From Shigella phage ESh25, in sequence record ON528735: a DNA stretch of 64,000 bases; one strand, given 5' to 3'. The notes below the pieces were generated by a model. That model saw nothing but the letters and a program-made list of their open reading frames with translations. It did no database searches and had not been told where the DNA came from. The translations under genes and the position numbers were made by a program. Shown here one piece after another: positions 31,998-32,453 of the stretch. Each line of letters starts with the position of its first letter. The stretch's first letter is position 1.

Positions 31998-32453
31998 TTA
32001 TTTTAAATCGTCTGCCCAATCAAGCTTAAGAGGTTCTTTGTATTCACGATCTAATACGACCGGAATTTGTACATCACCGCTAAATGATAAGGGTCCAACA
32101 TTATAAGACAATGTTATATGCGGTGTGTAATCATCAAAATCGTGTGTAGCACCTAGTGCCCGCGCATACATGTGTCGACAGCGCAGATATTCAGAATCTA
32201 GCACAAGTACAAGAGTCGATCCATCTTGTGTTTTCCACACTTCTAAATGTCCAGAAGAAGCTACTTCAAAACTTCCACTCGATGGAACATATGGAACATT
32301 TACTCTTGAATAACATATAGTCGAATGAATTTTTTCTCTAGGAACTGGATTAGGAACACGTAAAGAGCGCTGGAGTTCTTCCAGCGCGTCAAGTGTTAAT
32401 TCTGAAAACTTAGCTGCTACATAAAGACCCGTTGAAAAGTCTTTAAATTCCAT
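31998..32453 (-). CDS. 57B: gp57B; 2H-phosphoesterase-fold protein, anti-CBASS nuclease Acb1 homolog
   Basis: 151 aa with two H-x-T/S motifs (HSTI, HITL) typical of the 2H phosphoesterase fold; position upstream of 57A as in T4. Confidence 0.8.

Follow-up and report, generated by a model that had tools for sequence, protein, structure and literature searches.

Two questions are raised by the gene known in T4-like phages as 57B when it is met in Shigella phage ESh25: whether its product is the anti-CBASS enzyme Acb1 or a protein of RNA metabolism or tail-fibre assembly, and whether it is one of two working anti-CBASS factors in its region of the genome. The DNA analysed here, called the window, is a stretch of 64,000 nucleotides from record ON528735. 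A sequence-only reading of it had proposed that 57B encodes a 2H-phosphoesterase-fold protein consistent with the ‘anti-CBASS nuclease Acb1’, and had counted a second likely anti-CBASS factor in a Vs.4-like gene. Judged by its sequence, it is nearly certain that the window’s 57B is the acb1 gene of a T4-like Tequatrovirus, with a product of the same sequence as T4 Acb1. The gene is already known, its protein, motif, fold, mechanism, phenotype and genomic context all having been published for T4, and acb1 itself adds nothing to current knowledge; the modest value of the present case lies in an intact and strongly constrained acb1 beside an acb2 that is frameshifted as written.

The acb1 locus and its surroundings

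The window is collinear with T4 over approximately 41.5-106 kb, at 90-98% nucleotide identity in alignments against T4 loci, and the closest of 50,697 phage records are Tequatroviruses with about 96-98% identity; on these alignments its source is a T4-like Tequatrovirus. The acb1 frame (Table 1) runs on the minus strand from an ATG at 32453..32451 to a TAA at 32000..31998 and fills exactly the interval singled out by the earlier reading. The gene order on this strand is gene 1, 57A, acb1, an internal head protein gene, homologues of trna.4, trna.3 and trna.2, and the tRNA cluster. The 57A product has 76 aa in the window and 80 aa in T4, an AKDE insertion near the C-terminus being missing in the window.

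Table 1. Coordinates of the features discussed in the text (window numbering).
Feature	Position	Strand	Evidence and remarks
acb1 (gene 57B) CDS	31998..32453	-	ORF listing; 151 aa + TAA stop
Gene 57A, tail-fibre assembly chaperone	32453..32683	-	PF17594 GP57, E=3.9e-49; directly upstream of acb1, co-directional
Gene 1, dNMP kinase		-	PF21448, E=4e-106; upstream of 57A
Internal head protein gene	31667..31924	-	PHROG 3499 ‘internal head protein’, E=3.7e-50; directly downstream of acb1, in the position of T4 ipI
TAATG junction, TAA of 57A overlapping ATG of acb1 by one base	32451..32455	-	Strand reads GAAGAATAATGGAATTT; T4 reads GAAGAATGATGGAATTT
T4 late-promoter consensus TATAAATA inside gene 1	33039..33046	-	Pattern match; 356 nt upstream of the 57A start
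First HxT motif, H43-S44-T45 (T4 H44/T46)	32319..32327	-	Read from sequence; HSTI spans 32327..32316
Second HxT motif, H112-I113-T114 (T4 H113/T115)	32112..32120	-	Read from sequence; HITL spans 32120..32109
C-terminal lid segment, residues 144-151 (T4 145-152), including W146	32001..32024	-	Sequence same as T4
vs.4/acb2 homologue	21672..21939	-	Homopolymer A7, one A more than in RB27 (plus strand T7, 21893..21899)

Abutting or overlapping 57A and acb1 genes recur in other Straboviridae genera. Specifically, the layout of the window is also that of T4, Krischvirus, Tulanevirus and Pseudotevenvirus, where the upstream gene is annotated as a tail-fibre chaperone, and in Lazarusvirus and Schizotequatrovirus records acb1 is similarly abutted by an upstream ORF, annotated only as ‘hypothetical’. 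At the junction itself, T4 reads GAAGAATGATGGAA, with TGA as the 57A stop and 57B annotated from the first ATG, whereas the window reads GAAGAATAATGGAA. One G-to-A substitution accounts both for TAA in place of the TGA stop of 57A and for ATA in place of the ATG of T4 Met1, and translation in the window must therefore start at T4’s Met2. Phages 132 and EcNP1 have the same TAATG junction and 151-aa product, which is also how RefSeq annotates EcNP1. No strong Shine-Dalgarno sequence can be read upstream of the acb1 ATG, and the translation of acb1 is likely to be coupled to that of 57A via the TAATG overlap.

With regard to transcription, the late-promoter consensus inside gene 1 is conserved in T4 together with its flanks and is a candidate source of late 57A-acb1 transcription. 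Such a role would fit both the published expression of 57B, which is predominantly middle/late, and the appearance of cGAMP-cleaving activity in T4 infection, which begins at about 15 min (PMC9117128). Between 31300 and 35500, 14 sigma-70 promoter-like sites were found when 16.2 were expected from shuffles, and 2 terminators when shuffles gave 1.8; since these counts do not rise above the shuffles, no early promoter is claimed for acb1. The intergenic region between acb1 and the internal head protein gene, which matches T4 except for 1 nt, contains a hairpin with a 9-bp stem (GATGAGGTA...TACCTCATC, 31947..31974). This hairpin overlaps a TTTACA-17-TACTAT promoter-like site (31956..31984, minus strand), and a second copy of the same hexamers is located at 31653..31625, upstream of the next gene.

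The internal head protein encoded downstream of acb1 resembles T4 IPI over its N-terminal 22 residues, which align with IPI residues 1-26 (12 identities in 26 columns), and nothing is detectable in the comparison with IPI past this point. The shared residues are probably a capsid-targeting leader. By sequence, the gene beside acb1 is not T4 ipI; its mature part is different, falls in PHROG 3499 and goes under the name IP5 in RB51 and wV7. The product of T4 ipI is an anti-GmrSD factor, and a different injected protein occupies the same anti-defence position in the window.

Several other differences from T4 were observed along the window. The tRNA cluster at 29239..30641 (minus strand) is unlike that of T4, with nine genes (Arg, Asn, Tyr, Met-CAT, Thr, Ser, Gly, Leu and Gln) and no tRNA-Pro or tRNA-Ile called within it, and an ORF for a segB-like GIY-YIG homing endonuclease (29747..30397) lies between tRNA-Ser and tRNA-Gly, whereas in T4 it lies after tRNA-Arg. 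The T4 segment with ipII and ipIII is absent, the alignment skipping about 1.1 kb of T4 (65360..66453) over 6 window bases (23954..23961). Going by the alignment breakpoints at 3802..3805 and 38246..38251, the window also lacks the group I intron of T4 nrdD, with its I-TevII, and the segC-5.3 segment, two absences typical of mobile-element mosaicism among T4-like phages. Finally, a 644-nt insert between the genes for gp18 (sheath) and gp19 (tube), missing in T4, is filled by a 214-aa ORF with a TTG start (57965..58609, plus strand); this ORF has no Pfam match, and its Cys pairs and DH...N motif, picked out by eye, are reminiscent of an HNH homing endonuclease.

Identity and active site of the 57B product

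The protein encoded by the window is identical, at 151 of 151 positions, to residues 2-152 of T4 gp57B (NP_049750.1), and the genes differ by 9 nucleotides, 9 of them synonymous and 0 non-synonymous. In phages 132 and EcNP1 the acb1 region has a further 13-14 ungapped nucleotide differences from the window (all but one of those listed fall inside the acb1 CDS), and the protein is again identical. Because the nucleotide differences from T4, 132 and EcNP1 leave the protein unchanged, the comparison indicates strong purifying selection on acb1. Two plus-strand ORFs lying antisense within the gene (32156..32320 and 32170..32313) have nothing to support them and were set aside, because it is the sense frame that is under clear purifying selection. 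Homologues of 57B were found by tblastn in 1,470 phage records, 498 of which have at least 99% protein identity. The annotation of one close relative, Escherichia phage 132 (MZ417521.1), hints at a disrupted acb1, as the gene is broken there into a 68-aa ‘hypothetical protein’ and an antisense ORF. The 151-aa Acb1 ORF is intact at 84..539 of this locus (L012), so the apparent disruption is a gene-calling artefact in a public record.

Family searches lead to the same assignment. The protein matches the Pfam family Acb1 (PF23474) with 202.7 bits (cut-off 27, E=2.6e-60), its residues 8-149 covering positions 1-144 of the 144 in the profile, and at E<=0.1 the Pfam scan gives no other family, LigT-type or otherwise; the NCBIfam scan gives no family either for this protein or for the Acb2 frame discussed below. 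A sequence search of the PDB retrieves Acb1 of Erwinia phage FBB1 (7T26 and 7T27, E=4.1e-62), with 96 of 141 residues identical (68%) over residues 8-148. It also retrieves a distant 165-aa Acb1 (9q2g, E=0.004), in which both HxT motifs align with those of the window, and a chain related to the latter, 9q2y, has Ala at the position of the first catalytic His. Since a single-sequence AlphaFold2 model of the 151-aa protein was unusable (mean pLDDT 37.8, pTM 0.30), the 2H fold is assigned from the homology with 7T26; the C-terminal lid is supported by the same homology and by a lid sequence identical to that of T4. The matches to T4 Acb1, PF23474 and 7T26 thus bear out the proposal of a 2H-phosphoesterase-fold Acb1.

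The starting point of that proposal had been two motifs, HSTI and HITL, spaced as in 2H phosphoesterases, and both are indeed present, with their histidines (H43 and H112) 69 residues apart. Two H-x-T/S motifs by themselves are weak evidence: a protein with 5 His and an S+T frequency of 0.152 would by chance have at least two His followed by x[ST] with a probability of about 0.17, or of about 0.025 if x-T only is counted. The strength of the assignment is far above chance because the whole protein matches PF23474, 7T26 and T4 gp57B. The alignment with T4 Acb1, which had been suggested as a check, retains the catalytic histidines; H43, T45, H112 and T114 correspond to T4 H44, T46, H113 and T115 (T4 numbering being window numbering plus 1) and are invariant in the family. 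The nine sequences of the family alignment (27-100% identity) came from the window, T4, FBB1 (the crystal sequence), Salicola jumbo phage SCTP-2 and five further genera of Straboviridae, and the invariant columns are H43, T45, S49, V82, R93, G101, Y109, P111, H112, T114 and E137. As far as this alignment reaches, the catalytic tetrad is the most conserved feature of the Acb1 family, and H43 and T45 align with the H and T of both FBB1 Acb1 and 9q2g. The residues that contact the nucleobases are also all present, namely the aromatic Y11, W73, F106 and W146, as well as E140 (window numbering).

The roles of these residues have been described in the study of T4 and FBB1 Acb1, where the scissile phosphate is positioned above H44, T46, H113 and T115, the bases are stacked by Y12, W74, F107 and W147, and the adenine N6 is read by E141 (PMC9117128). 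The residue numbers of that study fit T4 numbering, as W74 and F107 match T4 and the window while FBB1 has F and Y there. In the FBB1 co-crystal, residues 145-152 become ordered into a lid above 3'3'-cGAMP, with W147 stacking on a base; T4 H44A is catalytically dead, and H44A/H113A is inactive both in vitro and in vivo (PMC9117128).

Function was established with the T4 protein, which was found as the 3'3'-cGAMP degrader by activity-guided fractionation, named Acb1, purified, assayed and deleted from the phage (Hobbs et al. 2022, PMC9117128). It is a metal-independent cyclic-oligonucleotide phosphodiesterase that acts on cyclic di- and trinucleotides with 3'-5' linkages and adenosine, cuts 3' of adenosine via a 2',3'-cyclic phosphate and does not cleave cGG, cA4 or 3'2'-cGAMP, and the FBB1 structures have a 2H phosphoesterase fold with a U-shaped pocket (PMC9117128). 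Deletion of acb1 from T4 abolishes cGAMP cleavage, leaves growth normal where CBASS is absent and causes a defect of more than 300-fold on CBASS hosts only (PMC9117128). Consistent with this, T4 transposon sequencing (HIDEN-SEQ preprint) found 57B/acb1 non-essential on K-12 and depleted on a CBASS host. In the earlier designation ‘anti-CBASS nuclease Acb1’, the name Acb1 stands and ‘nuclease’ is too loose a term for a cyclic-oligonucleotide phosphodiesterase (PMC9117128). The ORF should be annotated as Acb1, anti-CBASS cyclic-oligonucleotide phosphodiesterase.

Most related records are labelled ‘RNA ligase’ or ‘hypothetical protein’, and these labels are unsupported by experiments. Taken at its word, the former would make 57B a generic 2H RNA enzyme, either a LigT 2'-5' RNA ligase or an RNA 2',3'-cyclic phosphodiesterase, with a part in RNA repair or tRNA metabolism. 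The names given to the 57B orthologue in RefSeq and other records (‘RNA ligase’, ‘RNA ligase/cyclic nucleotide phosphodiesterase’ or ‘RNA 2',3'-cyclic phosphodiesterase’) and the description of PHROG 755 (‘RNA ligase’) speak for such an enzyme, as do an HxT/HxT tetrad common to all 2H enzymes and the proximity of acb1 to the tRNA cluster. However, the profile searches described above returned Acb1 only, with no LigT/2'-5' RNA ligase profile among the Pfam matches and nothing in NCBIfam, and the literature consulted reports no tested RNA ligase or RNA end-healing activity for 57B. Moreover, the identical T4 protein was identified via cGAMP cleavage, an activity lost in acb1-deleted lysates, and the published pocket suits cyclic di- and trinucleotides, with its adenine-specific contact and closing lid (PMC9117128). 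An RNA enzyme is, on this evidence, very improbable, and the label ‘RNA ligase’ appears to be a name propagated from a family-level resemblance to LigT-type 2H enzymes. That 57B works with gp57A in tail-fibre assembly, as its historical name, the overlapping frames and a tight linkage to 57A (conserved with start/stop overlap in several Straboviridae genera) might suggest, has next to no probability, given that T4 with acb1 deleted grows as wild type without CBASS (PMC9117128), that 57B proved dispensable on K-12 in the T4 transposon library and that the protein has a phosphoesterase catalytic tetrad and no chaperone signature.

For Acb1 of the window, the chemistry and the CBASS phenotype are carried over from its identity with T4 Acb1. 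On this basis, a gene transcribed mainly in the middle/late period, with the conserved late-promoter consensus inside gene 1 and probable coupling of its translation to 57A through the TAATG overlap, would yield a small enzyme of the 2H-phosphoesterase fold whose U-shaped pocket takes up a cyclic di- or trinucleotide. The bases would be stacked on Y11, W73, F106 and W146, and the adenine N6 read by E140. The C-terminal lid would then shut on the ligand and strain it, allowing the 2'-OH of the adenosine to attack the 3'-5' phosphodiester, and the tetrad H43/T45/H112/T114 would, without a metal, catalyse the formation of a linear product with a 3'-phosphate by way of a 2',3'-cyclic phosphate. 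With 3'3'-cGAMP, cUA, cAAA and cAAG destroyed in this way, CBASS effectors would not be activated and the infected cell would not commit abortive suicide.

The acb2 homologue, frameshifted as written

The count of two anti-CBASS factors in the window holds in part: the window does have a homologue of Vs.4/Acb2, but its reading frame, as written, shifts after codon 15. In a tblastn search, T4 Vs.4 is split over two frames of the window, and the site of the shift is a homopolymer at which the window reads GACGAAAAAAATC (A7) whereas RB27, with an intact 88-aa protein, reads GACGAAAAAATC (A6); T4 and AR1 read GAAGAGAAAATC. Following the +1 shift, the frame opened by the ATG ends after 17 codons at a stop in 21886..21888, and Y8, H11 and T12 are cut off from the rest of the protein, so that no single ORF joins them to K23, R79 and F82. 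The rest of Vs.4 can be reached only from a TTG located 4 bases downstream of the ATG, in the other frame and with a different N-terminus. The resulting 87-aa frame (21672..21935) matches the Acb2/Tad1 hairpin family PF24729 with 56.5 bits (cut-off 27) over profile positions 8-58 only, whereas intact Vs.4 of RB27 covers positions 1-58. In T4 Vs.4, cGAMP is contacted by Y8 and H11, and T12 forms a helix cap; the Y8A protein binds more weakly, and neither Y8 nor T12I mutants protect CapV against activation (PMC10097602).

Is the extra A a property of the phage or of the record? An exact match to the 86-nt stretch around the site was found in 0 of the 222 matching phage records, and the best 12 of these 222 all match at 85 of 86 positions with one gap; with a 361-nt query, the 25 best records listed all span 360 nt. 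An exact-match scan of IMG/VR viral contigs gave 0 matches for the A7 allele and 0 for the A6 allele, and so says nothing either way. As a check for homopolymer errors, all indels relative to T4 with a length that is not a multiple of 3 were collected from those aligned segments that reach 800 nt or more and together make up most of the window. Judged by the coordinates of the T4 gene tables, the others fall between genes, in highly divergent stretches or at the very 3' end of small ORFs, are compensated locally or, at 22103 in vs.5, reflect an odd allele carried by T4; there AR1 and RB27 share the 73-aa form of the window. Because the other indels are accounted for in these ways, the insertion in vs.4 stands alone and the sequence is not generally error-ridden. 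A lone insertion neither proves nor excludes a sequencing error, and the A7 run reflects either a mistake in sequencing a homopolymer or a true loss of function in the phage. The second case, in which the extra A is real and the phage is a natural acb2 loss-of-function variant with a perfectly conserved acb1, countering CBASS by signal degradation alone, is a tentative reading of the sequence and somewhat doubtful. Transcriptional slippage on the A7 run is a possible source of low-level Acb2.

Were the allele genuine, it would bear on how phages balance the evasion of CBASS against guard systems such as Panoptes, which sense anti-CBASS proteins. T4 escapes the decoy-nucleotide guard of Panoptes through frameshift and nonsense mutations in acb2 (PMC12657218), and phage Bas43, which has a natural nonsense allele of acb1, escapes both Panoptes types (PMC13577387). 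The frameshift could thus be a field example in which a guard system has driven the loss of one gene from a redundant anti-CBASS pair. On account of the acb2 frameshift as written, the window may carry one working anti-CBASS factor and not two.

Relation to known systems

The closest counterpart of the window’s Acb1 is the founding anti-CBASS phosphodiesterase, T4 Acb1 (NP_049750.1), with which it shares the same 151 residues, the catalytic and ligand-contact residues and the order gene 1-57A-57B-internal protein gene. The two differ in that T4 Acb1 is annotated as one Met longer, in the 57A stop (TGA in T4, TAA in the window) and in the identity of the downstream internal protein gene. Acb1 of Erwinia phage FBB1, with structures in the apo form (7T26) and with 3'3'-cGAMP (7T27), has the same HxT/HxT tetrad, the same Y11, E140 and W146 and the same lid region, but has W73 replaced by F, F106 replaced by Y and an extra residue following window residue 79. 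A second anti-CBASS factor of T4-like phages, Acb2/Vs.4 of T4, is encoded about 10 kb from acb1 on the same genome arm; it sequesters the signal whereas Acb1 cleaves it, and it is the window’s copy of this gene that is frameshifted as written.

Beyond CBASS, LigT and the RNA 2',3'-cyclic phosphodiesterases resemble Acb1 in having two HxT/S motifs and a metal-independent acid-base chemistry that passes through a 2',3'-cyclic phosphate (PMC9117128). These cellular and viral 2H enzymes act on RNA ends, whereas the substrate of Acb1 is a cyclic di- or trinucleotide immune signal. The strategy of destroying a nucleotide messenger of the host is shared with Acb1 by Apyc1 (an anti-Pycsar protein of the MBL fold), by the poxins, which act on 2'3'-cGAMP, and by the ring nucleases AcrIII-1 and Crn4, although the folds of these enzymes are unrelated to that of Acb1 and their substrates are different.
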